Positions 18,930 to 38,589 of a DNA stretch of 53,431 nt are shown here, piece after piece (positions within the stretch are counted from its first letter, which is position 1; every line of letters begins with the position of its first letter). The position numbers and the translations under genes are program-made. The notes below the pieces were generated by a model. That model had not been told where the DNA came from, did no database searches, and worked only from the letters and a program-made list of their open reading frames with translations. The DNA is from an uncultured Bacilli bacterium (GTDB taxonomy: Bacteria; Bacillota_I; Bacilli_A; RF39; UBA660), in NCBI GenBank assembly GCA_947626115.1, contig CANQQX010000005.1, forward strand, positions 1 to 53,431. Direction: 5' to 3'.

Positions 18930-20393
18930 ATGAAAAGAATAATAATAAATAACTATAAATTTATTTTTGGTTTAATACTTGGCTTAGTAATATCTTTAAC
19001 AACAGTATATGCAATTGATGCCTATATTGAAAGTAATAAAGTAGCCTATAATAATCATAATAAAACCAATGTCGAAGAAGCCATAGATGAATTGTACGAA
19101 AAAAGTGGCATGCATAAAAATAAATGGGTAGATCCAATACTTAATGGAGCAGATCCTGTATTAAAGAGTCCATTAATACCAGTTGAAATAAAAGACAATG
19201 GTGAAGTTTATTATGCTAACGAAAATAGTGAATGGTATAATTATAAGAAAAAAAGATGGGCTAACGCAGTTATCTTAATTGATGAACCTAGTAATGCAAA
19301 TTACCAAGTTGGAGATCACATAATAGAAGATGATATCGAAAGTTACTTTGTCTGGATACCAAGATATCAATATAAAGTATGGGATTTAGGAAAATATTCA
19401 AATGCGATAGCAGTTTCAAACATGAAAGATGTTCAAGATCAAAATGATACATCTTACTATAAATTGTTTGTTAACTATAGAACAATAGATATAAGATTTG
19501 GTACATATGATAAATATCCAAAGATGGCAGAACCAACATCAACAGGAGTATATTACACTCATCCAGCCTTTACTTTAGGAAATAAAGATTTAAATGGTAT
19601 CTGGATAGGGAAATTTGAAACAGGTGGAACAAATGCAGCAGATATTATTATTAAACCAAATGTAACGTCATGGCGAAATGAAACAGTAAGGACCTTTTTT
19701 GATGCTGCAAAACAATATAAAAGAGATTTAGATAGTCATATGATAAAGAATACAGAATGGGGAGCAGTAGCTTATTTATCACATTCTGCTTATGGTATTA
19801 ATACAGCAGTAAATATAAATAATGCTAAAGATAATATAACAGGTTATGCTGCTGCTCCAGGTACTAATCAAACTAAAATTCCGGGAGAAAATGGATCAAT
19901 TACTGACCCACAAGTAACTCAACCTTATAATACTGAAGCAGGTTATTTAGCCAGTACAACAGGCAATATTACCGGAGTATATGATATGAGTGGTGGAGCA
20001 CATGAATATGTAGCTAGTTGTTTAGAAAATACCTGGAATATAAGTGCAAGTGATTTTACTCTTGATTTACTAAATACTGAAATAGCTGCCGGATATATAG
20101 ATAAATATGCTAGTGATACTACTAATTATGCATATGATAAGCGTATTTTAGGTGATGCCATTGGAGAAATAGGCCCATATTATAATTTTATTGATAGCGA
20201 TGGTTATCCAAGAGCACATAATAGTTGGTATTATGATTATTCAATTTTTTTTGATCCTGGTCAGCCTTGGCTAACTCGTGGTATGGATTCTGGCTCTGGC
20301 ACATTAGCTAGTCAATTTGCTTTTGGCCCTAGTTCAGGCATAAAATTAAATAATGCAACTACTCGTCTTATTTTAGCACCCATAAATAATTAA
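18930..20393 (+). CDS. Surface protein with C-terminal FGE-sulfatase/CLec-like domain, paralog 1
   Basis: N-terminal signal or TM segment. FVWIPRY, WIGKFE, KNTEWGAVAYL, GVYDMSGGAHEYV, PWLTRG and terminal RLIL. Confidence 0.8.
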   Translation: MKRIIINNYKFIFGLILGLVISLTTVYAIDAYIESNKVAYNNHNKTNVEEAIDELYEKSGMHKNKWVDPILNGADPVLKSPLIPVEIKDNGEVYYANENSEWYNYKKKRWANAVILIDEPSNANYQVGDHIIEDDIESYFVWIPRYQYKVWDLGKYSNAIAVSNMKDVQDQNDTSYYKLFVNYRTIDIRFGTYDKYPKMAEPTSTGVYYTHPAFTLGNKDLNGIWIGKFETGGTNAADIIIKPNVTSWRNETVRTFFDAAKQYKRDLDSHMIKNTEWGAVAYLSHSAYGINTAVNINNAKDNITGYAAAPGTNQTKIPGENGSITDPQVTQPYNTEAGYLASTTGNITGVYDMSGGAHEYVASCLENTWNISASDFTLDLLNTEIAAGYIDKYASDTTNYAYDKRILGDAIGEIGPYYNFIDSDGYPRAHNSWYYDYSIFFDPGQPWLTRGMDSGSGTLASQFAFGPSSGIKLNNATTRLILAPINN

Positions 20394-20416: not shown

Positions 20417-21901
20417 ATGAAGAGAATAAATAATAAATGTATATTTATACTTGGTATATTAATAGGCGTTGTATTATCAGTAACAACAGTATATGCAGTA
20501 GATGCTTATATCGAAAGTAATAAAGTTGCCTATAATAATCATAATAAAAATAATGTTGAAGAAGCAATAGATGAATTATACGAAAAAAGTGGTATGCATA
20601 AAGATAAATGGGTAGATCCAATACTTAATGGAGCGGATCCTGTATTAAAAGATCCATTAATACCAGTTGAAATAAAACCTAATGGAGATGTATATTATGC
20701 TAACTTAAATAGTGAATGGTATAACTATAGTGAAAAAAGATGGGCCAATGCAATTATATTAGTAGATAGTCCCAGTAATACAAATTATAAAGTTGGAGAT
20801 CATATTCTAGAGAGTGATATTGAAAGTTATTTTGTGTGGATTCCAAGATATCAATATAAAGTATGGGATTTAGGAAAATATATCAGTGCTCCAGATGGAA
20901 GTACATTAGTAAATGGAAGTTATGCAACATCAACAACCCAAGCAATGAATAAATCAAGAATAATCGATATCCAATTTGGAACACCAAATAATATACCCAA
21001 AATGACAGAGCCAAGTACAACAGGAGTATATTATACTCATCCAGCCTTTACTTTAGGAAATAAAGATTTAAATGGTATCTGGGTAGGCAAATTTGAAACC
21101 GGATATAAAGGAGCAGATAGCACTACTAGTGCACAAGTAAATAGAGAAGATTCTACAAATGTAATAGTAAAACCAAATGTTCATTCGTGGCGATATAATT
21201 CTATTAAAAATATGTTCATGACATCATTTAATTATGAAAGAAATTTAGATAGTCATATGATGAAGAATACGGAATGGGGAGCGGTAGCATATTTATCTCA
21301 TTCACAATATGGTCTTGGCAATGAAGTAGAAATAAACAATACTAGTGATTATATGACTGGTTATGTAGCAGCCCCAAATACAAATCAAAGTACTCGTTTA
21401 GGTACTTATGTAGAAAGCAATGATAAAACCCAAACTCAACCATGGAATACACCAACTGGTCATTTAGGAAGTACAACCGGCAATATTAGTGGAGTATATG
21501 ATATGAGTGGTGGATCATGGGAATTAGTAGCGGGATGTATGGAAGGCCTAGTAGGTGATAGTGGCTTTGACACTTCAACTTTAGCAACTGAAATGGCTAA
21601 TGGCTATATTGATAAGTATCCCAATGTTAGTACTGAAACATCTTATAATAATAGAATTCTAGGGGATGCCACTGGAGAATTAGGCCCCTTTTATAGTTTT
21701 TATATTGGTGTAGGAACTAATTCTCATCATAATAGTTGGTATGGTGATGGAAATTACTTTGTTGAACCAAATAGACCTTGGTTTTCTCGTGGTAATGGCT
21801 TTAATGATGGTGCAGAAGCTGGGCAATTTGCAGCTTTTATTGGTAATGGTGGATTAAGTTATTCTACTTCTTTTCGCCTAGTTCTTACTCCAATTAAATA
21901 A
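20417..21901 (+). CDS. Surface protein with C-terminal FGE-sulfatase/CLec-like domain, paralog 2
   Basis: Same motifs (GVYDMSGGSWE, PWFSRG, SFRLVL). RBS AAGGAG. Confidence 0.8.
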   Translation: MKRINNKCIFILGILIGVVLSVTTVYAVDAYIESNKVAYNNHNKNNVEEAIDELYEKSGMHKDKWVDPILNGADPVLKDPLIPVEIKPNGDVYYANLNSEWYNYSEKRWANAIILVDSPSNTNYKVGDHILESDIESYFVWIPRYQYKVWDLGKYISAPDGSTLVNGSYATSTTQAMNKSRIIDIQFGTPNNIPKMTEPSTTGVYYTHPAFTLGNKDLNGIWVGKFETGYKGADSTTSAQVNREDSTNVIVKPNVHSWRYNSIKNMFMTSFNYERNLDSHMMKNTEWGAVAYLSHSQYGLGNEVEINNTSDYMTGYVAAPNTNQSTRLGTYVESNDKTQTQPWNTPTGHLGSTTGNISGVYDMSGGSWELVAGCMEGLVGDSGFDTSTLATEMANGYIDKYPNVSTETSYNNRILGDATGELGPFYSFYIGVGTNSHHNSWYGDGNYFVEPNRPWFSRGNGFNDGAEAGQFAAFIGNGGLSYSTSFRLVLTPIK

Positions 21902-23613: not shown

Positions 23614-26253
23614 ATGGCAAAAAAATATGTCTATATGTTTAAAGAAGGTAATAAAGACATGCGTGAAATCCTTGGTGGTAAAGGGGCTAATTTAGCCGAA
23701 ATGACTAATTTAGGTATGCCTATTCCGCAAGGTTTTACCGTATCTACAGAAGCATGTGTTGATTATTATCAAAATAACAAAGTAATTCGAGATGAAATTA
23801 TTAAAGAAATTGAAGAATCGCTAAAAAAATTAGAAGAATTAGCAGGAAAGAAGTTTGGCGATAAAGAACGCCCTTTACTTGTATCAGTAAGAAGTGGTGC
23901 TAGAGCTTCTATGCCTGGTATGATGGATACTATCCTTAATTTAGGTTTAAATGATGAATCAGTCGAAGGCTTTGCTAAATCTAGTAATAATCCTAGATTT
24001 GCTTATGATTCTTACAGAAGATTTATTCAAATGTATTCTGATGTAGTAATGGAAGTACCTAAATCATACTTTGAAAAAATTATTGATGAGGTAAAAAGTG
24101 AAAAAGGCATTACTTATGATAATGAACTTACTACAGAAGATTTACAAGAATTAGTTAAGAGATTTAAAAAAGTTTATAGTGAAAATATGCATGGTGAAGA
24201 GTTCCCACAAGATGTTCATACGCAATTAATCGGGGCAGTTGAAGCAGTATTCCGTTCGTGGGATAATCCAAGAGCTATCGTTTATCGTAGAATGAATGAT
24301 ATTCCAGGTGATTGGGGAACTGCGGTTAATATTCAAGCCATGGTATTTGGTAATATGGGTGATACTTCAGGTACTGGTGTTGCATTTACGAGAAATCCAG
24401 CAACTGGGGAAAAAGGTATTTATGGTGAATATTTAATTAATGCTCAAGGTGAAGATGTTGTAGCTGGTGTTAGAACGCCAGAGCCTATTACAAAACTTCA
24501 AGAAGATTTACCAGAATGCTATAAAGAGTTTATGGACCTTGCTCAAAAACTAGAAGATCATTATCGTGATATGCAAGATATGGAATTTACAATTGAAAAT
24601 GGTAAATTATATTTCTTACAAACCAGAAATGGTAAAAGAACAGCGCATGCCGCTATTAAAATTGCTTGTGATTTAGTTGATGAAGGAATGATTAAAGAAG
24701 AAGAAGCGGTTTTAAGAATTGAAGCTAAAAGTTTAGATCAATTATTACATCCAACATTTGTAAAAGAAGCTTTAGATAAGGCCGAAGCAATTGGTGAAGG
24801 TTTACCGGCATCTCCGGGTGCTGCTTCTGGTAAAGTAGTATTTACGGCGGAAGATGCTAAAAGACTTGGTAAAGGTGGAAAGGGCGAAAGAGTTGTTTTA
24901 GTTCGTCTTGAAACTACACCGGAAGATATTGAAGGAATGGTCGCAAGTCAAGGTATCTTAACTGTTCGTGGAGGTAGAACTAGTCATGCGGCCGTTGTTG
25001 CTCGTGGTATGGGTACTTGTTGTGTCGCTGGATGCGGCGCTATTAAAATTGATGAAGAAGAGAAACATTTTGAACTTGGTGGCGTTACTTTCCATGAAGG
25101 TGATTATATTTCTCTAGATGGTAATACTGGTAAAATCTATAAGGGTGATATTGAAACCAAAGAAGCCGAAGTTGCTGGTGATTTTGGTCGTATTATGGCT
25201 TGGGCTGATAAATATCGTAAGCTTGGTGTTAGAACTAATGCTGATAATCCAAGAGATACTAAAAGAGCCATTGAACTTGGTGCTGAAGGTATTGGTTTAT
25301 GTCGGACAGAGCATATGTTCTTTGAAGCCGACCGTATTCCTAAAATTAGAAAAATGATTTTAGCTAATACGGTAGAAGAAAGAGAAAAAGCTTTAAATGA
25401 ACTTATTCCATTCCAAAAAGGTGATTTCAAGGCAATGTATAAGGAACTTAAAGAGCTTCCTATGACAGTTCGCTATCTTGATCCACCTTTACATGAATTC
25501 TTACCAAATACCGAAGAAGAAATTAAAGATTTAGCGAAAGATATGGGTGTATCTGTTGAAGATATCAAAAATAAATGTGCTGAACTTCATGAATTTAACC
25601 CAATGATGGGCCATCGTGGTTGTCGTCTAGCGGTCACTTATCCAGAAATAGCGAGAATGCAAACTAGAGCTTTAATGGAAGCTGCTATTGAAGTAAAAGC
25701 GGAAGATGGCTATGATATTGTTCCAGAAATAATGATTCCTTTAGTTGGCGAAGTTAAAGAATTAAAATTTGTTAAAGATATTATCGTCGAAACTACTGAA
25801 AAAGTTAAGAAAGAAAAAAATAGTGATATTAAATATCATATTGGTACCATGATTGAAATTCCAAGAGCAGCCCTTACTGCTGATAAAATTGCGGAAGAAG
25901 CAGAATTCTTCTCATTTGGTACTAATGACTTAACGCAAATGACATTTGGGTTCTCAAGAGATGATGCTGGTAAATTCTTAGATAGTTATTATCAAAATAA
26001 AATCTATGAAATTGATCCATTTGCTAAACTTGATCAAACTGGTGTTGGGATGCTTGTTCAAATGGCAGCAGAAAAAGGTAGATGCACAAGACCTGATTTA
26101 AAACTTGGTATTTGTGGCGAACATGGTGGTGAACCATCTAGTGTGGAATTCTGTCATAAAGTAGGTCTTAATTATGTGTCTTGCTCACCTTATCGTGTAC
26201 CTATTGCTAGACTTGCCGCAGCACAAGCTGCTATTAAAGAAAAAAGTAATTAA
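23614..26253 (+). CDS. ppdK: Pyruvate, phosphate dikinase
   Basis: LGGKGANLAEM, SVRSGA, GGRTSHAAVVARG and FFSFGTNDLTQ. Confidence 0.98.
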   Translation: MAKKYVYMFKEGNKDMREILGGKGANLAEMTNLGMPIPQGFTVSTEACVDYYQNNKVIRDEIIKEIEESLKKLEELAGKKFGDKERPLLVSVRSGARASMPGMMDTILNLGLNDESVEGFAKSSNNPRFAYDSYRRFIQMYSDVVMEVPKSYFEKIIDEVKSEKGITYDNELTTEDLQELVKRFKKVYSENMHGEEFPQDVHTQLIGAVEAVFRSWDNPRAIVYRRMNDIPGDWGTAVNIQAMVFGNMGDTSGTGVAFTRNPATGEKGIYGEYLINAQGEDVVAGVRTPEPITKLQEDLPECYKEFMDLAQKLEDHYRDMQDMEFTIENGKLYFLQTRNGKRTAHAAIKIACDLVDEGMIKEEEAVLRIEAKSLDQLLHPTFVKEALDKAEAIGEGLPASPGAASGKVVFTAEDAKRLGKGGKGERVVLVRLETTPEDIEGMVASQGILTVRGGRTSHAAVVARGMGTCCVAGCGAIKIDEEEKHFELGGVTFHEGDYISLDGNTGKIYKGDIETKEAEVAGDFGRIMAWADKYRKLGVRTNADNPRDTKRAIELGAEGIGLCRTEHMFFEADRIPKIRKMILANTVEEREKALNELIPFQKGDFKAMYKELKELPMTVRYLDPPLHEFLPNTEEEIKDLAKDMGVSVEDIKNKCAELHEFNPMMGHRGCRLAVTYPEIARMQTRALMEAAIEVKAEDGYDIVPEIMIPLVGEVKELKFVKDIIVETTEKVKKEKNSDIKYHIGTMIEIPRAALTADKIAEEAEFFSFGTNDLTQMTFGFSRDDAGKFLDSYYQNKIYEIDPFAKLDQTGVGMLVQMAAEKGRCTRPDLKLGICGEHGGEPSSVEFCHKVGLNYVSCSPYRVPIARLAAAQAAIKEKSN

Positions 26254-26265
26254 TTTTTATAAAAC

Positions 26266-26295
26266 AACTTCATCGTATGATGGAGTTTTCTTTTT
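26266..26295 (+). terminator. Intrinsic terminator after ppdK
   Basis: AACTTCATC-GTAT-GATGGAGTT plus T-rich tail. Confidence 0.75.
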
Positions 26296-26342
26296 AATTA
26301 TGTTATATTAAGTTAATAAATATTTTAAATGGGGTAATTACT

Positions 26343-26912
26343 ATGAAAATAAAAAGAAATTATAATTACTATTTTGATGAATATAATTCATTTAATGAAT
26401 TTCTTAAAGAGTTTTTGCGTATTATAAAGGATAAAAAAATAAAAGCATTTATTCCTACGGGTGCTTTATGGATGTTTGACAACAATAAATTTACAGATAA
26501 AATATACACTACTGATGAACCTAATTATTTAGTATTTGATGATGATACAGTATTAATTTTTAATTATAATTGGTTTAATATGATTGATATAAAAGTATCT
26601 AATTTAAGAGATTTGAGTATTTCAGAAATAAAAAATAAAAATAATTTTGAGTTTGATTGTTATGATGCAAGTATTGTTGATTATGAATTAAATAAATTTA
26701 CTGATGAATATATTATAAATCCTGCTACTGATGAAACTAGATCAGCTGGTGGAAGTTATTTTAAAGAAATAATATTTCATTTAAGTAATGAGAAAAAGCT
26801 ATGTATTTGTGCTGAAAATGCTGAAGAAGATGGATATTGTGATATATGGATGGAAAATAATAATTTAAAAGGAATATTTAATGGAGAATCGTATGAAGTA
26901 TGGTGGAAGTAA
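26343..26912 (+). CDS. Hypothetical protein
   Basis: 189-aa ORF with GGGG RBS. No recognisable motif. Confidence 0.75.
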   Translation: MKIKRNYNYYFDEYNSFNEFLKEFLRIIKDKKIKAFIPTGALWMFDNNKFTDKIYTTDEPNYLVFDDDTVLIFNYNWFNMIDIKVSNLRDLSISEIKNKNNFEFDCYDASIVDYELNKFTDEYIINPATDETRSAGGSYFKEIIFHLSNEKKLCICAENAEEDGYCDIWMENNNLKGIFNGESYEVWWK

Positions 26913-26978
26913 AGAAAATAAAAATCAAATTTTTCCTAAACTATTGCAAAATGTAAAAAATAATGTTATAGTAGAATT

Positions 26979-27211
26979 ACTTAATAATATAATAGCGATT
27001 AATAATAGTTAATCTACATTAGTTTATTAATTATTATTTCTTATCATATTTTGTTATATGAAGATGCTTTAAGAATACCTTTATAGGTCTTGTTAGTTAT
27101 TAGGTATATGATCATATGAAGAAAGAAAACTTCGAACAAGTAACTTTAAGCTAAGACTAAGCTTAGGTTAATTCCAAACTAGAAATAACGACTTGTCATC
27201 GTTATTTTTTT
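26979..27211 (+). ncRNA. Candidate ~230-nt small RNA or small-peptide transcript
   Basis: Promoter TTGCAA(26944)-17-TGtTATAGT(26972). Terminator AAATAACGA..TCGTTATTT plus T-run (27183-27211). No long ORF. Confidence 0.45.
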
Positions 27212-27326
27212 GATAAATAAAAAATAAAAAATTATAAGAGAAAATAGGAATTTATTATTGCATTGTTTAATTTTATAGAATAAAATGATTATGTGATATT
27301 TAATATTATTTTAGGAGTGATTATTT

Positions 27327-30300
27327 ATGAAAGAAAAATTTAAATACTTATTAGTATTTTTAATAACTATAATTTTATTACCAATAAGTGTTTTGGCAAA
27401 AGAATCAGTAGAGTTAAAAATTGATAAAACTGATTTAAAAGTTGGTGATGAAGTAAAAGTAACTGCGAGTGTACCAAATAAAATGGAAGCATATGCTATT
27501 ATGGCAACATTAAAGTATGACAAAAATGTTTTTCAAATAGTTAATGATAGTAATTTTACTATTAAAAATGATGAAAGTATTAAATATAGTAAAGAAACAA
27601 ATAAATTTGGTATTATTAATAAAACAGGCAAAATATCTCTAAATGACGGAGATACACTTTTTACGGTTAATTTAAAAGTTAAAGATGATGCTAATGTTGG
27701 AAATACTAATATAGCTCTAACTAATATTACTTATACTGATGGCGATAAGGTGCAAAATTTAGATACAACATCTCTTAAAATATTAGTTACAAAAGATGCC
27801 AAAGATGGCGAAATAGTACCAGCAAATAAAGAAAATGAAATAGTTGAAGATGAAGAAAATATTATTAAAACATATAATAATATTCCCCTTATAATATTTT
27901 TGGGTATATTAGATGTCATTGGGTTAATTACTATTTTAATTATTAATAATAAAAATAAAGAGAATAATGATGATAAGAAAAAGAAAACAATTTTTGCTTT
28001 AATAGCATTAGAAATTGTTTTAGCACTAATAACTATAATTCTACTTTGGTTAAATTTTAATAAAACTGATGTCAATAATGATGGTAAAAAAGATTATCAT
28101 GATGCTGAAGAAATAATTGATTATTTAATTAATATTGAAGGAACAAAAGAAAAAAATAAAACAAATACTAATAAATATGATGTCAATAATGATGGCAAAG
28201 TAGATATTGAAGATATAGGTAATACTACGGAACAAATTGAAGATAATACTAAAGTAACTTTAAAAGAATTAAAAGAAGATAATGAATATTATGTTGAAAA
28301 GGGTAAAATAACGCTTAAATTTACGGCTGAAATTACACCAAAAGAAGCTAAAATAACTAAAGTTAAAATAGATAATAAATATTACAATGTAGAATTAGTA
28401 AGTGGAGTATATATAGCTATCGTAGATAATAAAGAAGCTGGTGTACATAATTTTGTAATTGAAGAAGTTGAACTTTCTAATGGAGTGAAAAGAAAAACTA
28501 ATTTAAAAATTACTAAAGAAGTATTAAAAGATCGTCCGGTAGTAGATGATTTAAGTCATGACATTAGAACTAGTGAATTATCTTTTACTGTAAAAGATAA
28601 AGATAAAGCTTTGCAAAGTGCTAGGATAACTGTTTTTGAAGGTAATATAACCGAAGAAGATATTAAAAATAGCGCTATTCAAACAAATCCTGATGATTTT
28701 GATAATTTTAAAGTAGTTTTTGAAGAAGAATTAGATCTTACTAAAAATTCATTTACTTTTAAACCAAAATTAGATATTGGTGGAGTTTATACTATTGTTA
28801 TTACGGGTAAATATGATTTAGACAGTAAAATTGGTGATAACAATAATTATGAAGAACAATTTCTTAATAATGGTTTAAATGTTATTACTGTGGGTAAAAT
28901 TACTATTACACCAAAAAGTACCGATGAAATATTTTTAACTAAAAAAACAAATCATGATTATTTATTTGATGTTGATTTTGAACCACAAATTATTGCTCAA
29001 GATGTTAAACAAGTTTTAATTGGGGAACAATATGTTGATGTAACTTATGAAGATGGTCATCTTAAATTAGTTCTTGATGATAATAAAATTGCTGGTGCTA
29101 AAAATATTATTATTAGTGCAGTTAAATTAGAAGATGGAACTGATGTTTTGTGTCATTATGAAATTAGTTATGATGTTTTAAAAGATGAACCAACAATAGA
29201 AAACTTTGTTTATCATAAAAAAACAAATAAAATTACTTTTGCTTTAAAAGATAATGATAATGCAATTAAAGATGCCAATATCAAAATAACTAATAAAGAT
29301 AATAAAGAAGTTTTTGCGGAAAATTTAAGTTTAGATACGAAAGATTATGCTTATAATAATATCAATTTAAAAGAAGGAGATACTTATAATATCAATATAG
29401 TTGGTAATTATGATTTAGATAGTAATGTCAATAATGATGCTAATGATGGCACGGCCAAATATGAACATAATCTTACTATTTATAATGTTGAATTACAAAA
29501 TGCTAATGAAGAAGAAGTTTATTATACTGAAAAAGGGGAAGAAATAACTTTAAAATTTAAAGCAATAATAAATCCAACTAATGAAGATGCTAAAATTAGT
29601 CAAGTTACCATTGGTGATGGCGTATATGAACCACAAAAAGATGAAAATGGTATCTATAGTGTTACTATTACTGCCCCAAATAAAGCCGAAGAAAAAAAAT
29701 ATACAATTAGAAATGTAATAATGGATGATGAAGATATAGATGAAAGCTTGTCTTTAAAAGTAGATGTTTTAAAAGACGTTCCTACAATAGAAGATTTATT
29801 AATTGATGAATCAAAAAATATTCCGGTTATAAGCTTTACTATAAAAGATCCGGATAATGCTTTAGATAAAAATGCTATTGGTAATTTAGTTATAGCTAAA
29901 GATGGTGGTAAAACCGAAACAATTGCCATAGATAAAGATTTCAAGGAAATTGCCTTAGATGCATTTGCAGATGAACTTGCTGGTAGTACTTTTGATTTAG
30001 ATATTAAAGCGAATTATAGTCGTCATAACTGTGAAAATGCTAGTAAATATAAGGAAGTGGATAAAAAATTAATTGATACTAAACAATTTAAAATATATAC
30101 AGCTACTTTAACGCCAGAAAGTAATAAAAACTTTGTACCTAAAAATGAAATAGTAGAATTTAAATTAAAATCAGATATTAAACCTAATGATGGTTCTACG
30201 ATAAAATCATTTGTGCTTGAAAATAATAAAGTTGTTGATGCTAGTAAAATAAATGATGGATCATATGCAATCAATTTAGAAACATTAAATGTAGCTGGTG

Positions 30301-33300
30301 ATAAAACTTATAAAATAGAAAAAATAATTTTAGAAAATGATATTGAAATAAAAGCTACTGCTAATATTTCTGTATATGTATTAAAAGATATTCCATATGT
30401 TAACAAATTGAATTTAAATGAAGATAATGAATCGATAAGCTATGAATTACATGATCCAGATAATGCACTTACTAGTGGAACAATCACAATTACTGGAAAA
30501 GATGATCAAAATCTTACAGAAAATGTTCAAAAAAGTGGTAAAGCTACTATAAATTATAATTTTCAAGATGGTGAAAGTTATGTAGTTAAAGTTATTGGTA
30601 GTTATGATTTAGATTCTAATAAAGAAAATAAACAAAATAGTGTTGATAATAAGGAGATGTCTTTAGAATCTTTCATAGTAGGTGGCGAATATAATTTTAC
30701 TCTTACTAATGCTAGTATTACAGATGCTCTTAAACCTAATGAATATCCAATATTAACATTTAAAAGTACTAATACTAGAAGTACATTTATAAATAGAGCA
30801 GAATTAACCATTGATGGTGAAAGTAGTCAATATGAAGTTACTAAAATTGATAAAGATACATATCAAATAGAATTATCTAATGTAGATATTAATCCAGGCA
30901 AACATACAGTTACTTTAGATAAAGTTAGTATGAATAATGGGGCTAAAACATTTGAAAATACAAAAGATTATAAAGTAAACGAATTAACTTATACTGTTTT
31001 AAAAGAAGCTCCTAAAGCGGATGGATTAACACTAAGTGTAAATAAAGCTAATAAAAGTGTTGTAGCTAATTTTAGTATAATTGATTCAAATAATGCTCTT
31101 AAAAAATTAAATGTGGCTTTAGTTGATTCAACTGGTAAAATAGTTTCTACTAAAGTTCTTAATTATGCTGAATTTGCTAGTAAAGATACAATAAAAGTTG
31201 AACTTTCTTATAATGGCAATACTGATGGCAGATATACCGTAAAAGTTTTAGCAGATTATGAACTTGCTCAAAAATATTTCTATGCTAATGAATGTATTGG
31301 CGAAAATACAGTTTTAGTTTATAGTAATGATGAAATTAGAATTGATAGAATGTATGTAGTTAACGATAGAAATGTTGAACAAGTTGATGGTTTATTCCCA
31401 ACCAAGATGCAAAAGAATTATCAAATTGCGGTGGAAGTAACAATCGCTGATTCTGTTAAAGCCCGTGGTTATGGTAGAGTATCTGGAGTAACTATCAATG
31501 GCGTTAATTATCCAGCTAACCAAATAAGTGGTTATAAATCTAAAGTTTATATTAATGTTCCTGCCACTGCGGGTGTAATTGAATTAACTGCTAATCGGGT
31601 TCAACTAGCTAATGATGGTTATTATAAAATATATAATGATTATTATTCTGTACCAGAAACGACTTTAAAATTAGATGTTTTAAAAGATAAACCAAAAATA
31701 GAAAATCTAGAAATTGAAGAAGATTATGAGAAAAAAGAAGTTACCTTTAATTTTGATGTAGTATTAGATGAAACTGCTAAAAGTGATGAATTTACGGATG
31801 GAACTATTACTTTAAATGGTGTAGATAAAGATATCAAAGTAGGACCAAATAATATTACCTTTACTAATGTAGATCAAAATAAAACTTATGATTTAATATT
31901 TAAGGGAACATATGATTTAGATACTAATACCTTTGATGACATAAGTAATGAGAAAAATAAAACTGTTAAAGGTGAATTTTATCGAGTAAAATATGGTTTA
32001 TATAATGATAATACATATGAAACAATAAATATTACTGATGCCAAGCTTGTTAGTGAAAAAGGTAATAAATATTTTGAAAAAAATGAAAAAGTTAAATTAC
32101 AATTTAAAGTTTCTGGTCTTAATGAAAATTTAGGTGTATTACCTAGCAAAGTAGTTATTAAAGATGAAGAATATAATTTAACAAAATTAGATGATAATTA
32201 TTATGAATTAATAATAGATGGTTATTCTAGTTTTGGCGAAAAAGCAATAACTATTACCGATATAATTTTAGATAATAGTAAAAAAGTTACTTTAACTGAG
32301 CCATTTACCTTTAATCCTGAAGTATTAAAAGACGCTATTAAAATAAATGATTATAAGTATAAAGTTGATGATGATAATATTACAATTAATATCGATTTAG
32401 ATGATGCCGATGGTGCAATAGTAGGATTTGCTAATGTAACAGTAACTGATGAAAAAGGAAAAGAACTATATAATAATAATTATCAAAATGAAATTGTAAT
32501 TAATCGTGCAGATAAGAGTATTTTAAGATATTATGTCAAACTTACTTTAGATTATGACCGAGATATTGATAAAGGTGATGATACTGCTAACCATTATAGT
32601 GATGTTTTACTTCTTGATGAATTAATATCATTAGAGAAAAATAATATTGAATTAAAAGATATTATTGATATTAACTTATATAAATATGCTAATGATAATA
32701 ATGAAGAAAGTATCAAGAAAATTGATGAAATTTCAATTACGGAATTAAAAGATAAATTAGATTCATATTTTGTTGAAGTTGTAATGGAAAATCTGCCAGC
32801 TATTCGAACTAAAATAGTTGATGTAAAAACTGTTCAAAATCATTTGATTTTAGTTTTAGATTATGATTATGTAACTAAAGAAGGTGGAGCGAAAAACAAT
32901 TTAGAAATTGATTTTGGTGAAATAAAAGAAAATAATAAAGCTAAAAATGAATTCCACCCAGAAACTGCAATTGAATCATTAATTGCAAAATTAGAAGCAA
33001 ATGAACCAGTTACCTTAAATCAAAATTATGATTTTTCTAAAATTAAATTAGATCGTAATGTATATATTGAAAATTATTCTAGTGTATTAGATGGTAATGG
33101 TTATACTTTTAAAAACTTAAGTAAACCATTATTTGGTACTCTTACTGGTGAAGTTAAAAATTTAAATATCAATGATGTTACCTTTGATGGCAATGGCCAT
33201 GGTGCTTTAGCTAATAATACGAATGGGGCTATAATTGAATATGTTTTAGTCGATCGCGTAACAAGAACATCTACTGCTAATAATCCTAATGGTGGTTTAA

Positions 33301-36300
33301 TTGGGGTAGCAGATAATACCAAAATAAAAACTAGTCGTGTTACCAATGTACTTATAAATGCTGGTTATTATGAACAACAAAATGGTTTATTAATTGGTAA
33401 TTCAAATAATAATACTGTTGTTGAAAATTGTTATGCTGAAGGAACTATTTCTGGTGGTTATAACTATACAAGTGGATTTATAGGTAACGCTAAATCTACT
33501 ACAATGCGAAATAATTATGCTAAAGTAACTACTAGAGGTCAATCTGGTTCTGTATTTGGTTTTGCAAGTGCTTATGGTAATAACGCATCTATTTATGAAA
33601 ATAATGTAAGTATCGCAAGTAATACAAGTACAACTATGATAAGTAGTGCTAGAACTATAAATAATAACTATTTCTTCATTAATAAAGAAGCAACTAATTC
33701 AAATGGTATAACTATTATTAAAGAAGATGAAATTAATGATGATTTATTCGCAAATAGAGTTAAACTTAGTGAAGATATTTGGTATATTAAAGATGTTAAT
33801 ATAAATAATTTACCAATCTTTCAAATAGAAAAGAAATCAGTAATTAATGATAAAACAATTGAAGATTATCAAGAAAAACATGAAACATTATATAAAAATT
33901 TAATGAAATTAATGCCTTTCTTTGATGATAAAAAAATAGTAGAAACTAGTAAGAATATTCCCGAAGATAGTAATTTAGTAACTAAAACTATTAAACATAT
34001 TGTACCAGTTGATGAAAATGGTAATTTAGTTACTTATTTAACTACTGATAATCCAAAGAAAATAAAGAATATAAAAATTATATTTACTGATGGCTCTAAA
34101 GAAGAATACAAAGTTAATTATGATAAAACCTATGATATGGTAGCGTCATATAAAATTAGTGAGTTAAATATCGATTATAATTATGAGCATTATGTTATTA
34201 ATAATGATTCGCAAGTAGTAGTTAATTTAACAAATTACTTAAAAGGATTAGATTATACTAATAATTTAGATATACTAACTACTAATGCTGATTCTAGATT
34301 ATATCGTGATTTCTATAATGAAAATACTAAATATGATTTAGAAGAATTTGTCTTAAAATATTTATCTAATAGTGAATATACTAATACTTCATCAAATAGC
34401 GCAATTAATAATTATATTGAAAGTGAAGTTAAAAAAGAGCAAAAATTAGAAAAGGCTTTATATGTCTATAATTATTTAAAGAGATTCTATGATTTAGATA
34501 TTGGTGGTATGAAGTTATATGACTTTATAATGTTTAATATGAAAGGCTTTGATGAAAGTTTAACTACCGATAAAATTGTTGAATTATATTTAGGTAATGG
34601 TAGTGGGGATAATTTTAATACTAATCAAACTAATACAAGATATAATGAAGTATTAGGTAAATATACTAATTTAAATACCATACCTAAATTAGTTGAATAT
34701 TTAGTAAAAGGGTTAACTAATGCTGATTTATCAGCATGGACTCGTAGTCAAGTTAAAAGTATTTTAGTGGAAATTCCAATTGATGGACATCCAAATGTAA
34801 AATATACTTTATGGGATCATTTTATCAGTGAATCAAATGATGAGATATTAAATCAATTCTTACCAATGCTTACTTTACCAGAAGGAGCAGCTTATATAAT
34901 GTCAATGCCAGTTCAATATATAATTGGAGCGCAAAGAACATATATAGTTGATCCATCTAATCCAAGTGATGTAGAGAATTTAAAAGCGAGAATGAAAACT
35001 TATGAAACAAGAATGAAAAGATATTTTGATACTGCTTATTCAATATTAGAAGATGAAAAATTATTTAATGATATTTTAATTTATAGTGTTGATAAGAGAC
35101 TTACTAAAACAGAAACTGGTTCTGTTAGTAATACTGCTTATACAACAACTGAACCATTCCATAAAAACTTTGTCGAAGCAACTGGTTTGTGGGCGGCTGC
35201 AGCTGGAGTAAATGCTGCTGCCTGGGGTCCTCGTCTTGAATGGCAAGTAGCAGGTATTTTAGATAGTACGCTTGCTGAAGAAGGTTATAATGATACATCT
35301 CATGTTACCTTTAGAACTTGGTCACATGAATCAGCTCACCTTATTGATGCTAGATTATTCTTAAGAAATAATGGACGTCGTTTTGATGCAGGTGGCGAAG
35401 ATTATGCTGATAACTTCTTAATGCAATCATTTGATAGAAATAGTATTACAATGAATTTATCAATGATGATGGATAAAACAGCAAAAAGTGTCGAAGAAGC
35501 AACTAAAGCTAATGATGCAAAATTAGGCCCAGTAGCATCTAACCTAACACCAGAGAGAATCAATAGTCCAGAAAAGATTCATGATTTCTATCGTAAATTA
35601 TTTGAAACAGTTTATGTAATTGATTATATTGAAGCACAAGCATTCTTAAAACTTCCGGCTGATACACAAAAAGATTTAGCTATTCAAGTATCTTATCCAA
35701 ATGAAACAAAACAATTTACTAGAGTAGTTGATGAAAATGGTAAAGATACTGATCAATTTGAAGGTCCATTCTATAAAGATGATGAATTCGCTAAATATCG
35801 AGCTAGAGAAACAACTAAATATACGAGATTAAATGAATTAACTGATTTTAATACACCATTAAGAACAATGAATGATTTAATTAATAATAGAATTATGTTA
35901 TATCCTGGTGTTTATCGTTATTCATCTCGTGGTAATAATTCATATGGTGGAGAAGGAATTAATACCGTTCACTGGTATCAACCATGGAATCCAGATGGTA
36001 GACCTGATTCTTATGCTTTAAAATGGATAAGTTATGAAATGCTTGGTTGGAAGGGATATAATAATGGTTTTGTTGAATATGCAAGTAATGTTCATTATCA
36101 ACCAAATAAAATCTATTCAGATTTATCTCATCCAAAAAAAGGTACATCGACCGTAAATTATAAATCAGATAGCATGGCTTTAGCTCAAATTTCTAATAAT
36201 CGTTTCACCAACTTTAGTGATTACAAAAAATATCGCTTTAATGATATTAAAGATAAATTAGATCGCCTTGATAGTATAATTAATGTTGATGATTATATTG

Positions 36301-36554
36301 ATGCTTTTGTAGAATCGTTGCAAAAAGACGCCATTGATATTACCGAAGGAGTTCAAAGTGAACTTGATAGAGTTCCAACTTGCCCAACTGATTATTATTG
36401 TTCTCGTGGTAAATTTGCTACTTATTTATCTTATCAATATAGTACAGCATTAAGACAAGAAATATACTACAAGTTAAAAACTGAAACTAACGATTTTAGA
36501 GATGAAATTTTTAAAGATTCTACGCAACAAACTATTACTAAGTTAGCCGAATAA
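27327..36554 (+). CDS. Giant surface zinc metalloprotease (ZmpA/B/C, peptidase M26-like) with cohesin-like and dockerin-like domains
   Basis: Signal peptide, cohesin-like beta domain, two TMs, two DVNNDG Ca-binding loops, about 7 large repeats, GLUG-like motifs, and HESAH with Glu 20 residues downstream. Confidence 0.85.
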   Translation: MKEKFKYLLVFLITIILLPISVLAKESVELKIDKTDLKVGDEVKVTASVPNKMEAYAIMATLKYDKNVFQIVNDSNFTIKNDESIKYSKETNKFGIINKTGKISLNDGDTLFTVNLKVKDDANVGNTNIALTNITYTDGDKVQNLDTTSLKILVTKDAKDGEIVPANKENEIVEDEENIIKTYNNIPLIIFLGILDVIGLITILIINNKNKENNDDKKKKTIFALIALEIVLALITIILLWLNFNKTDVNNDGKKDYHDAEEIIDYLINIEGTKEKNKTNTNKYDVNNDGKVDIEDIGNTTEQIEDNTKVTLKELKEDNEYYVEKGKITLKFTAEITPKEAKITKVKIDNKYYNVELVSGVYIAIVDNKEAGVHNFVIEEVELSNGVKRKTNLKITKEVLKDRPVVDDLSHDIRTSELSFTVKDKDKALQSARITVFEGNITEEDIKNSAIQTNPDDFDNFKVVFEEELDLTKNSFTFKPKLDIGGVYTIVITGKYDLDSKIGDNNNYEEQFLNNGLNVITVGKITITPKSTDEIFLTKKTNHDYLFDVDFEPQIIAQDVKQVLIGEQYVDVTYEDGHLKLVLDDNKIAGAKNIIISAVKLEDGTDVLCHYEISYDVLKDEPTIENFVYHKKTNKITFALKDNDNAIKDANIKITNKDNKEVFAENLSLDTKDYAYNNINLKEGDTYNINIVGNYDLDSNVNNDANDGTAKYEHNLTIYNVELQNANEEEVYYTEKGEEITLKFKAIINPTNEDAKISQVTIGDGVYEPQKDENGIYSVTITAPNKAEEKKYTIRNVIMDDEDIDESLSLKVDVLKDVPTIEDLLIDESKNIPVISFTIKDPDNALDKNAIGNLVIAKDGGKTETIAIDKDFKEIALDAFADELAGSTFDLDIKANYSRHNCENASKYKEVDKKLIDTKQFKIYTATLTPESNKNFVPKNEIVEFKLKSDIKPNDGSTIKSFVLENNKVVDASKINDGSYAINLETLNVAGDKTYKIEKIILENDIEIKATANISVYVLKDIPYVNKLNLNEDNESISYELHDPDNALTSGTITITGKDDQNLTENVQKSGKATINYNFQDGESYVVKVIGSYDLDSNKENKQNSVDNKEMSLESFIVGGEYNFTLTNASITDALKPNEYPILTFKSTNTRSTFINRAELTIDGESSQYEVTKIDKDTYQIELSNVDINPGKHTVTLDKVSMNNGAKTFENTKDYKVNELTYTVLKEAPKADGLTLSVNKANKSVVANFSIIDSNNALKKLNVALVDSTGKIVSTKVLNYAEFASKDTIKVELSYNGNTDGRYTVKVLADYELAQKYFYANECIGENTVLVYSNDEIRIDRMYVVNDRNVEQVDGLFPTKMQKNYQIAVEVTIADSVKARGYGRVSGVTINGVNYPANQISGYKSKVYINVPATAGVIELTANRVQLANDGYYKIYNDYYSVPETTLKLDVLKDKPKIENLEIEEDYEKKEVTFNFDVVLDETAKSDEFTDGTITLNGVDKDIKVGPNNITFTNVDQNKTYDLIFKGTYDLDTNTFDDISNEKNKTVKGEFYRVKYGLYNDNTYETINITDAKLVSEKGNKYFEKNEKVKLQFKVSGLNENLGVLPSKVVIKDEEYNLTKLDDNYYELIIDGYSSFGEKAITITDIILDNSKKVTLTEPFTFNPEVLKDAIKINDYKYKVDDDNITINIDLDDADGAIVGFANVTVTDEKGKELYNNNYQNEIVINRADKSILRYYVKLTLDYDRDIDKGDDTANHYSDVLLLDELISLEKNNIELKDIIDINLYKYANDNNEESIKKIDEISITELKDKLDSYFVEVVMENLPAIRTKIVDVKTVQNHLILVLDYDYVTKEGGAKNNLEIDFGEIKENNKAKNEFHPETAIESLIAKLEANEPVTLNQNYDFSKIKLDRNVYIENYSSVLDGNGYTFKNLSKPLFGTLTGEVKNLNINDVTFDGNGHGALANNTNGAIIEYVLVDRVTRTSTANNPNGGLIGVADNTKIKTSRVTNVLINAGYYEQQNGLLIGNSNNNTVVENCYAEGTISGGYNYTSGFIGNAKSTTMRNNYAKVTTRGQSGSVFGFASAYGNNASIYENNVSIASNTSTTMISSARTINNNYFFINKEATNSNGITIIKEDEINDDLFANRVKLSEDIWYIKDVNINNLPIFQIEKKSVINDKTIEDYQEKHETLYKNLMKLMPFFDDKKIVETSKNIPEDSNLVTKTIKHIVPVDENGNLVTYLTTDNPKKIKNIKIIFTDGSKEEYKVNYDKTYDMVASYKISELNIDYNYEHYVINNDSQVVVNLTNYLKGLDYTNNLDILTTNADSRLYRDFYNENTKYDLEEFVLKYLSNSEYTNTSSNSAINNYIESEVKKEQKLEKALYVYNYLKRFYDLDIGGMKLYDFIMFNMKGFDESLTTDKIVELYLGNGSGDNFNTNQTNTRYNEVLGKYTNLNTIPKLVEYLVKGLTNADLSAWTRSQVKSILVEIPIDGHPNVKYTLWDHFISESNDEILNQFLPMLTLPEGAAYIMSMPVQYIIGAQRTYIVDPSNPSDVENLKARMKTYETRMKRYFDTAYSILEDEKLFNDILIYSVDKRLTKTETGSVSNTAYTTTEPFHKNFVEATGLWAAAAGVNAAAWGPRLEWQVAGILDSTLAEEGYNDTSHVTFRTWSHESAHLIDARLFLRNNGRRFDAGGEDYADNFLMQSFDRNSITMNLSMMMDKTAKSVEEATKANDAKLGPVASNLTPERINSPEKIHDFYRKLFETVYVIDYIEAQAFLKLPADTQKDLAIQVSYPNETKQFTRVVDENGKDTDQFEGPFYKDDEFAKYRARETTKYTRLNELTDFNTPLRTMNDLINNRIMLYPGVYRYSSRGNNSYGGEGINTVHWYQPWNPDGRPDSYALKWISYEMLGWKGYNNGFVEYASNVHYQPNKIYSDLSHPKKGTSTVNYKSDSMALAQISNNRFTNFSDYKKYRFNDIKDKLDRLDSIINVDDYIDAFVESLQKDAIDITEGVQSELDRVPTCPTDYYCSRGKFATYLSYQYSTALRQEIYYKLKTETNDFRDEIFKDSTQQTITKLAE

Positions 36555-36557
36555 AGC

Positions 36558-36595
36558 AAAACAGGATAATTAAAAAAATAAATTATCCTGTTTTT
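36558..36595 (+). terminator. Intrinsic terminator
   Basis: AAAACAGGATAATT / AATTATCCTGTTTT. Confidence 0.8.
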
Positions 36596-36642
36596 ATTTT
36601 CTTTTTTTAATAGCTAAATTTTTCAAAAAGATAAAAAATGTC

Positions 36643-36670
36643 TTGATTCTCGGGGGGGGTATATTATAAT
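36643..36670 (+). promoter_or_regulatory. Poly-G spacer promoter, copy 3 (G8 at 36652-36659)
   Basis: TTGATT-CTC-GGGGGGGG-TATAT-TATAAT, 16-bp spacer. Confidence 0.85.
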
Positions 36671-36756
36671 TATCTTATAATAGATAATGGTTTTATATAC
36701 ATAAATACGATATTTATGGTATAATAAAAAAGATAATAAAGAGAAAGTTATTATAG

Positions 36757-38246
36757 ATGAAGAGAGTAATAAATAATAATAATAAAATAATAATTGGTTT
36801 TATCATAGGATTACTATTTTCTATAACAACAGTATATGCAGTAGATGCCTATATTGAAAGTAATAAAGTAGCTTATACTAATCACAATAAAAATAATGTC
36901 GAAGAAGCCATAGATGAATTGTATGAAAAAAGTGGTATGCATAAAGATAAATGGGTAGATCCAATACTTAATGGAGCAGATCCTGTATTTGATAATGAAG
37001 GAAAGTTAATTCCAGTAGAAATAAAACCGAATGGTGATGTATATTATGCAAGTTTAAATAGTGAATGGTATAATTATAGTGAGAAAAGATGGGCCAATGC
37101 TGTAATATTAGTAGATAATCCAAGTAATACAAATTATCAAGTTGGAGATCACATAATAGAAGATGATATTGAAAGTTACTTTGTCTGGATACCAAGATAT
37201 CAATATAAAGTATGGGATTTAGGAAAATATAATAGTGCTCCAGATGGAAACACTTTAACAGATAAAGACTATAATTCATCAACAGCTCAAGCATTAAATA
37301 AATCAATACTAATAGATATAAAATTTGGTAACATTGACAAAGCCCTTAAAATGGTAGAGCCAAGTATAACAGGAGTATATTATACCCATCCAGCATTTAC
37401 CTTAGGAGATAAAGATTTAAATGGTTTATGGATAGGTAAATTTGAAACAGGATATAAAGGGGCAACAAGTAAAGAAACAGCTGAAGTAAATAGAGAAGAA
37501 ACTACAAGTGTCATAATAAAGCCAGATGTTTATTTGTGCGTAATATATCAGTGAAAAATATATTTATGACTTCATATAATTATGATAGAAACTTAGATAG
37601 TCATATGATAAAGAATACAGAATGGGGAGCTGCAGCTTATCTTTCCCACTCACAATATGGAATAGGAAATGAAATAAGACTTAATAACACAAGCGATTAT
37701 AAAACTGGTTATTCAGCTGCTGCCAATACTAATCAAAGTACTCGTTTAGGTACTTATGCCGAAAGTACTGATAAAACTATAACGCAACCATGGAATACGG
37801 CAACGGGCTATTTAGCGAGTACTACCGGAAATATAAGTGGTATATATGATATGTCAGGTGGTGGTTGGGAATACGTTGCTGGTTGTCTAAATGAAACAAT
37901 TGGTGCTAGTGAATTTACTATAGACGAATTAAAATACTATACTCAACTTGATTATTTAGATATATATGATAAAAATAGTTTAATTTCATCATATAATAAT
38001 AGAATATTAGGTGATGCAACAGGAGAAACGGGGCCATTTTTTAAATATAATGATGGAGATAATGGTGTAAGAACTCATAATAGTTGGTATAGTGATTGGG
38101 CCTGGTTTATTTTTGGCATCTATCCTTGGTTTGTTCGAGGTGGCGGTTACGATTCCGGTGGACTTTCTGGTGCTTTTAATTTTAGTCGTTTTGGTGGAGA
38201 AGCTTCAGAATATTTTTCATATAGAATTACTCTTGCACCAATATAA
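36757..38246 (+). pseudogene. FGE-sulfatase/CLec-like surface protein paralog 3, split by a 1-bp frameshift (or a sequencing error)
   Basis: ORFs 36757-37554 and 37536-38246 together align with paralogs 1 and 2. The conserved Trp-Arg codons TGG CGN appear as TG CGT at 37537-37541. Confidence 0.8.
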
Positions 38247-38250
38247 TTAT

Positions 38251-38589
38251 TTATATTTTGTTATTTTTTACTATACAAAAAGCAATAGCGTAATCATTAT
38301 CATAAGATAAAGATAAATTTATTGCATATTCTTCGTGATTAATGATAGAAGGAATAGGCTCCCCTAAAGAACCTTTTAATATTTCAATTTCATTAAAATC
38401 AAACTTACTATTAGTAGCTTTAATAATGGCTTCTTTAGCTGCAAATCTGGTGGCTAAAAAGTTAATTGGTTCCTTTATAGTACTCGCAATATCTAGCTCT
38501 TTTTTGGTATATACTTTTTTAATAAATGATGGATTATTATCTATCATTTTTTTAAGTCTTGGAATAAATACTATATCAGTTCCAATCAT
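38251..38589 (-). CDS. acpS: Holo-ACP synthase (phosphopantetheinyl transferase)
   Basis: IGTDIV..R, FLATRFAAKEAIIKA, G.P and LSLSY. Confidence 0.92.
   Translation of the reverse strand: MIGTDIVFIPRLKKMIDNNPSFIKKVYTKKELDIASTIKEPINFLATRFAAKEAIIKATNSKFDFNEIEILKGSLGEPIPSIINHEEYAINLSLSYDNDYAIAFCIVKNNKI

Follow-up and report, generated by a model that had tools for sequence, protein, structure and literature searches.

Cohesin-dockerin pairs normally join separate proteins, which raises the question of what the two modules do when, as in one gene of the 53,431-nucleotide stretch of DNA analysed here (the window), they stand on either side of two predicted membrane segments in a single M26 protease. 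The gene sits on contig C5 of a genome of 1.27 Mb (26% GC, 93% complete) from the order RF39, which we take to be gut-dwelling. An initial annotation had suggested a self-assembling surface lattice, an intramolecular clasp or the recruitment of other dockerin enzymes. On balance, we favour an uncut chain in which the cohesin grips the dockerin of the same molecule at the membrane.

An M26 protease behind a predicted membrane hairpin

The gene (27327..36554, + strand, as are its parts given below) encodes a 3075-aa Zmp-like M26 metalloprotease precursor, as judged from the open reading frame, Pfam and a structure match to IgA1 proteases. It opens with a predicted Sec signal peptide (aa 1-24, 27327..27398; sequence, hydropathy and conservation) that ends V-L-A, conservation in the aligned relatives being at least 90% at both P19 and A24. 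The cohesin domain (aa 25-156, 27399..27794; Pfam, AF2, Foldseek and VIA) is matched by PF00963 at aa 28-149 (45.5-48.5 bits, cut-off 24.1) in a scan by segments, the Pfam scan of the whole protein having missed it, and all four cohesin fragments quoted in the initial annotation were found in the translated ORF. A short, fixed-length linker (aa 157-186, 27795..27884; type-B length statistics, pLDDT 80-88 in the AF2 model) leads to a predicted TM1 (aa 188-206, 27888..27944; hydropathy and sequence) with no LPXTG before it, a Lys-rich loop (27945..27989; NNKNKENNDDKKKKT, six Lys) and a predicted TM2 (aa 222-240, 27990..28046; hydropathy and motif rule) whose end lacks a signal-peptidase-like motif. 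These two segments and the signal peptide (5-23, 188-206 and 222-240) are the only three hydrophobic segments found by a hydropathy scan of the whole 3075-aa chain. The asymmetric dockerin that follows (aa 247-307, 28065..28247; Pfam, conservation and AF2 helices) is matched by PF00404 Dockerin_1 at aa 247-297 (33-37 bits, cut-off 22.9). Its Ca loop 1 (28068-28103) begins with DVNNDGKKDYHD and runs into helix 1, while Ca loop 2 (28179-28214) begins with DVNNDGKVDIED and is followed by a degenerate helix 3. The degeneracy of the second dockerin helix, D-I-G-N-T-T instead of D-L-x-L-L-I, had been overlooked in the initial annotation.

Behind the dockerin stands a stalk (28254..32426; repeat inspection) of about seven repeats of roughly 200-230 aa with the marker VLK[DE], which are likely beta-sandwich pairs; no Pfam or NCBIfam family was found above cut-off for the stalk, and at the N-terminus NCBIfam was likewise uninformative. 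The M26 N-terminal and GLUG-like region (32640..33821; Pfam and structure match), in which M26_N falls marginally below its cut-off (27.5 vs 27.7), precedes Peptidase_M26_C (34140..36512; PF07580, 121 bits against a cut-off of 22). The zinc-type motif is intact, with HESAH at 2667-2671 (35325-35339) and the downstream E2691 (35397-35399), and H2667, E2668, H2671 and E2691 are invariant in 64/64 aligned relatives. IgA1 protease structures 7uvl/7uvk were matched at E 5e-26 in an alignment over 1,200 residues, and the NCBIfam Zmp models gave 72-150 bits against cut-offs of 3000. Membership of the M26 family does not imply IgA as the substrate; according to Redzic et al. (PMC9637739), ZmpB, ZmpC and ZmpD do not cleave IgA1. 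Pfam, hydropathy and coordinates agree on the order signal peptide, cohesin, TM, Lys-rich loop, TM, two Ca loops, stalk and protease that had been read from the sequence, and the HMM check suggested for both modules placed each above its cut-off.

An AF2 model of aa 1-309 built on a 29-sequence alignment (pLDDT 85.5, pTM 0.75) predicts an ordered linker and three dockerin helices (257-270, 281-284 and 294-308; pLDDT 77-90), whereas the model of aa 25-310 made without an alignment reached pTM 0.46 and left the linker and dockerin unresolved. Foldseek placed the predicted cohesin nearest to the glycoside-hydrolase cohesins of Clostridium perfringens (E 7e-9) and VIA matched it to 2w1n (Z 14.7, rmsd 2.1 over 126 aa), with the next C. 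perfringens cohesin at Z 14.6. The Foldseek and VIA matches listed were cohesins and helical hairpins, with no dockerin among them because other parts of the model filled the lists.

Elsewhere in the window, 18930-20393, 20417-21901 and 36757-38246 encode three paralogous secreted proteins; the 18930-20393 protein, the one paralog of the three that was tested, has a weak FGE-sulfatase-like match, and that at 36757-38246 is broken into two overlapping frames near 37536-37554. Rfam gave no match in 26000-38500, and the 8 promoter-like sites upstream of the gene are close to the 5.3 +/- 1.9 expected by chance.

Two module types and the question of cleavage

The relatives were compared in a set of 177 distinct modules, drawn from full-length matches to the N-terminal region, the best 150 of 158 clusters from a profile search (E up to 1e-30) and fetched loci, and filtered for one N-terminal cohesin match and two parseable Ca loops, which left out fragments and multi-cohesin proteins. 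Type A (n=70) has a canonical dockerin with helix 3 D-L-x-x-L/I. Type B (n=107, including both proteins of the window's genome and P0164, which was mislabelled and is counted here) has an asymmetric dockerin; with a degenerate helix 3 and variable spacing, type B and the window dockerin alike depart from the symmetric duplication of helices 1 and 3 that is canonical in type A. A Gly precedes Ca loop 1 in 70/70 type-A vs 8/107 type-B modules, and the Ca loops are 32-36 residues apart in 69/70 vs 16/107, type-B spacing running from 33 to at least 163 residues with long low-complexity inserts. The loop between TM1 and TM2 carries at least three K/R in 98/107 type-B and 69/70 type-A modules. By the positive-inside rule the Lys-rich loop of the window protein is predicted to be cytoplasmic, and cohesin and dockerin would therefore both lie outside the membrane, on the same side, as the initial annotation had it.

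The types also differ where a chain might be processed. By a post hoc motif rule, set after the sequences had been inspected, a signal-peptidase-like motif stands at the end of TM2 in 53/70 type-A vs 5/107 type-B modules; a looser rule with cruder grouping gave 62/87 vs 22/90. Scoring with a matrix derived from the first signal peptides of the family itself gave a poor separation of the types (medians 5.9 for type A vs 3.7 for type B; scores above 5 in 40/70 vs 40/107), and it is this poorly discriminating matrix that gives the second site of the window protein a score of -0.6. An LPXTG-type motif precedes TM1 in 20/70 type-A modules and was found neither in the window protein nor in any of the 107 type-B modules. 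The cohesin-to-TM1 linker has an interquartile range of 25-27 residues in type B vs 37-86 in type A, and TM2 is more hydrophobic in type B (mean 2.75 vs 2.14). Given their signal-peptidase and LPXTG motifs, type-A modules are therefore likely to be cut and re-docked. The absence of such processing signals in type B, together with the short fixed linker, was counted in favour of an uncut clasp.

The same chain might still be cut after TM2 at a hidden, non-standard site, the freed dockerin-stalk-protease being held by the membrane cohesin. This would give the conserved pair an obvious purpose, would follow the likely route of the type-A relatives and the route proposed for streptococcal Zmps (Bek-Thomsen et al., PMC3518915), and draws on the poor separation of the types in the matrix test. 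We nevertheless regard a hidden cut as fairly unlikely in the window protein, where no small-x-Ala was found near the end of TM2, only about 7 residues lie between TM2 and Ca loop 1, and TM2 is of the more hydrophobic type-B kind.

A FastTree tree was built from 69 of the 123 distinct catalytic domains, with type B thinned to 36, and rooted on four cohesin-free M26 proteins from a single family. In this tree 32/36 type-B domains form one clade among type A (support 1.0, short stem of 0.07), and four sequences labelled type B fall outside it, one of them at the base. This fits, but does not prove, a derivation of type B from type A. The uncut design we favour would then derive from a cut-and-redock precursor that persists in the relatives, in which TM2 would have acted as an internal signal peptide and the freed dockerin-protease would have docked on the cohesin half.

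Predicted contact between cohesin and dockerin

Conservation was measured in 20 type-B proteins (18 from the M26 search and the two of this genome). The mean frequency of the top residue is 0.59 in the cohesin, 0.75 in loop 1 with helix 1, 0.78 in loop 2 and 0.46 in dockerin helix 3, compared with 0.65 in M26_C and 0.54 in the first stalk domain, and both modules are better conserved than the stalk. In 64 proteins chosen by their N-terminus, and so a biased sample, the modules are conserved at least as well as the catalytic domain. The Ca-loop residues D248, N250, D252, D259, N287, D289 and D296 are present in 20/20 type-B proteins, as are several residues outside the calcium sites: Y257, I263 and Y266 in the dockerin, Y56 and A57 in the cohesin. 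By cohesin numbering, A57 would lie on the dockerin-binding face. Positions resembling an interface appear to switch in step between the types, a pattern confounded by kinship: cohesin Lys at 59, 130 and 132 is paired with dockerin Glu17/His19 in type A, and small or apolar residues at the same cohesin positions with Ile17/Tyr19 in type B.

A two-chain prediction for aa 25-160 with aa 245-310 scored 0.60, against 0.01 for the best of three controls, with runs agreeing on at least 96% of contacts and a partner pLDDT of at least 60, and was rated weak. The mark is reached by 116/157 solved pairs and 2/215 mismatched pairs, although at scores up to 0.60 it is reached by only 18 of the solved pairs and by both mismatched ones, and the score may owe something to likeness to solved cohesin-dockerin complexes. 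Binding between the two modules is thus weakly predicted. The rise in pTM from 0.46 to 0.75 in the single-chain models suggests that cohesin, linker, dockerin and hairpin form a compact unit, the contact between the modules being read from pTM in a model that contains no membrane. Of the options in the initial annotation, the intramolecular clasp is thus the one supported by the fixed linker and the compact model, while the binding on which it depends is no more than weakly predicted.

That the modules have ceased to bind, the dockerin serving as a Ca-stabilised spacer at the stalk base and the cohesin having a separate adhesive or structural role, would account for the weak complex score, the degenerate helix 3, the low-complexity inserts and the loss of the Gly before loop 1. 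It would leave unexplained why none of the 32 M26 genes of the order that could be read (of 36) has lost either module and why Y257, I263, Y266 and A57, which are not calcium ligands, are invariant, and we consider it distinctly unlikely. The poorly conserved helix 3 and the variable Ca-loop spacing do count against the uncut clasp as well, as does the question, which the results here leave unexplained, of why a covalently tethered protease should keep a clasp at all.

The two-chain prediction fits binding between chains as well as within one, so that neighbours might bind head to tail in swapped dimers, rings or chains that cluster the proteases and perhaps mix the window protein with its paralog on contig C4, which has the same key dockerin residues. 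A precedent is the Ruminococcus bromii amylase Amy4, whose cohesin binds its own dockerin in assays and for which multimerisation was proposed (Ze et al., PMC4611034). Against such binding stand the linker, fixed in length and ordered in a compact single-chain model, and the valency of one to one, which yields no two-dimensional lattice without a further interface. A tethered partner is, moreover, present at high local concentration. Head-to-tail binding is accordingly judged unlikely. The self-assembling lattice of the initial annotation is unlikely too, because one socket and one plug per chain give at most chains or rings, and no sign of the further interface needed for a two-dimensional lattice was seen.

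In the uncut chain that we favour, the signal peptide would be removed and the helical hairpin would stay in the membrane, the chain being otherwise intact. The cohesin would fold back onto its own dockerin, and this calcium-dependent clasp, lying close to the membrane on its outer side, would close the hairpin into a rigid foot. The foot would carry the seven-repeat stalk and keep the catalytic head at a distance from the cell, there to cleave an extracellular, possibly host, protein.

Distribution, known systems and meaning

The N-terminal region has matches, many of them weak, in 45/301 genomes of the order. The M26_C matches in these genomes comprise 36 genes, and cohesin-TM-TM-dockerin was found in 32/32 of those with a readable N-terminus, although the loop of one is frameshifted and N gaps interrupt the stalk of two. 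The remaining four end at contig edges, two of them retaining dockerin sequence. Every full-length protein found with the N-terminal region (69/69) carries M26_C, which, with the same layout in the C4 paralog, rules out chance and an assembly chimera. That paralog (2471 aa, G000:C4:30769-38184) is 45% identical to the window protein over the C-terminal 2,188 columns. By eye, its surroundings (about 24000-49500) include Tad-type-like membrane proteins, a VirB4-like ATPase and a nucleotidyltransferase toxin-antitoxin pair, and a similar neighbourhood in relative L040 suggests a possibly mobile or surface-appendage region.

Several observations concern the relatives at large. In locus L097 (G167:C4) a frameshift in an A-run of the TM1-TM2 loop parts cohesin-TM1 from TM2-dockerin-protease; it was rejected as a natural two-gene split, the break being an A-run frameshift that assembly error or phase variation would produce alike. 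Locus L146, from another family of the class, also carries the module. An M26 protein of another family, L144 (G434:C5), shows a third version of the hairpin: a signal peptide, a small domain and a TM segment are followed by a KRKKK loop and another hydrophobic stretch, which ends V-R-A; no cohesin or dockerin match and no L/I/V-P-x-T-G motif was found in it. The module also fronts cargo other than M26 (P0157, P0161-P0163, P0171, P0187, P0097 and L058:2608-11202), namely GH5, BNR propellers, DUF4874/4832, a galactose-binding-like domain and one 2865-aa protein without HExxH, the GH5, BNR propeller and DUF4874/4832 cargo sitting on type-A modules. Relatives P0104, P0108 and P0094 reach 5,654-6,181 aa, mainly through extra stalk repeats, and some giant relatives add GLUG-like domains after the catalytic domain. 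Strong M26_C matches occur in small, mycoplasma-like genomes with TGA readthrough (family f22; L119, L120, L128-L135 and L138-L141). Among the profile matches P0090, P0145, P0147 and P0202 are multi-cohesin proteins with three or four cohesins and one eight-dockerin protein, P0090 and P0147 combining multiple cohesins with a dockerin.

The genome census proposed in the initial annotation returned three dockerins and three cohesins, each single, from the 93%-complete genome. Two of the dockerins are on the C5 and C4 proteases. The third belongs to an adjacent gene pair (G000:C8:39154-42370, - strand; loci L001/L006), whose first gene encodes a secreted SH3-like protein, a putative cell-wall hydrolase, ending in a near-perfectly duplicated, symmetric dockerin, and whose second gene, directly after it, encodes a cohesin-cadherin-like-TM protein. 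This is likely a separate two-gene anchor pair. GH9, CBM3 and GH48 were not found in the 93%-complete genome (the GH48 search having no positive control), nor were a multi-cohesin scaffoldin or many dockerin cellulases, and by these marks the genome does not encode a cellulosome.

The C8 dockerin protein is the one candidate on hand if a free cohesin of the protease recruited other dockerin enzymes into a host-protein-degrading complex, as had been suggested. The nearest folds to the window cohesin, those of the C. perfringens glycoside hydrolases, do form multi-enzyme complexes by binding the dockerins of other enzymes. Yet only three dockerins were found in the 93%-complete genome, and the C8 dockerin reads A-L at positions 10/11 and Q-K at 17/18 in dockerin numbering, against Y-H and I-D in the window protein. 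Recruitment is very unlikely, because this only other dockerin type has its own cohesin next door.

The closest known layout is that of the streptococcal and Gemella proteases (IgA1 protease/ZmpA, ZmpB, ZmpC and ZmpD). According to Bek-Thomsen et al. (PMC3518915), all Zmps have a signal peptide, LPXTG, two TM segments, repeats and the protease, and the second TM segment is possibly a second signal peptide; Redzic et al. (PMC9637739) give LPXTG, G5 and M26 as common to metallo-IgA1 proteases. The window protein shares with them the C-terminal M26 with HExxH..E, the signal peptide, the two hydrophobic segments and a variable repeat region, but differs in lacking LPXTG and a recognisable second signal-peptidase site, and in having a cohesin ahead of the hairpin and a dockerin behind it; Pfam gave no G5 match, whether run on the full protein or on its segments. 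Type A has the streptococcal Zmp layout, to which one cohesin-dockerin pair is added, the cohesin on the N-terminal side of the hairpin and the dockerin on the other. The initial annotation had set the LPXTG anchor apart as a contrast, whereas it looks like the same hairpin, 20/70 canonical-dockerin relatives combining a cohesin with an LPXTG-type motif, and the window anchor looks like a rebuilt form of it. A missing sortase as the reason for the anchor is ruled out by five sortase matches in the genome, which also encodes several C-terminal NPxTG-type proteins.

Other systems share single elements. The non-cellulosomal C. perfringens GH33/GH84C cohesins (PDB 2jh2, 2vo8, 2w1n and 2o4e), the closest in fold, are in secreted glycoside hydrolases, whereas the partners in the window protein flank a membrane hairpin in one chain. 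R. bromii Amy4/Sca1 of the amylosome likewise carries cohesin and dockerin on one enzyme, but it is a secreted amylase with both modules C-terminal and no membrane hairpin between them (PMC4611034), and its genome encodes 26 dockerins and 4 scaffoldins, against three dockerins here. In cellulosomes with single-cohesin anchors for type I dockerins, such as the Clostridium thermocellum OlpA/OlpC complexes (PDB 3ul4 and 4dh2; cohesin fold Z about 12), a cell-anchored cohesin holds a dockerin enzyme, anchor and cargo being separate genes and not one chain. In literature lying mostly outside subscription journals and supplements, we found no paper joining cohesin and dockerin to RF39, M26, ZmpB or a second signal peptide, and the layout was absent from the titles and abstract openings of the broader cellulosome, amylosome and protease literature. 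Neither the parts nor the way of anchoring is new; what is added here is the apparently uncut, short-linker form with an asymmetric dockerin, and the graded series.

We tentatively propose, as a possibility, that this series ran from a cohesin with LPXTG and an internal signal peptide (cut, wall-linked and re-docked), through the same without LPXTG, to an uncut, calcium-locked clasp. Uncultured Bacilli with small genomes would thereby have a protease on a stalk, directed against a mucosal protein of the host. Retention of the IgA1 protease precursor on streptococcal cells might find its explanation in the series as well, the cohesin-dockerin pair doing openly what another contact does there.

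About one-tenth of the order's sampled genomes (31/301, by M26_C matches) carry these M26 proteases of 2,400-4,000 residues. The gain is a new arrangement and not a new principle. If the favoured reading is true, very large enzymes could be displayed without sortase, by means of a cohesin-dockerin pair that flanks a membrane hairpin within a single chain, the same module being found on relatives with other cargo, and the pair would link the atypical N-terminal anchor of the streptococcal Zmps to a testable plug-and-socket mechanism.
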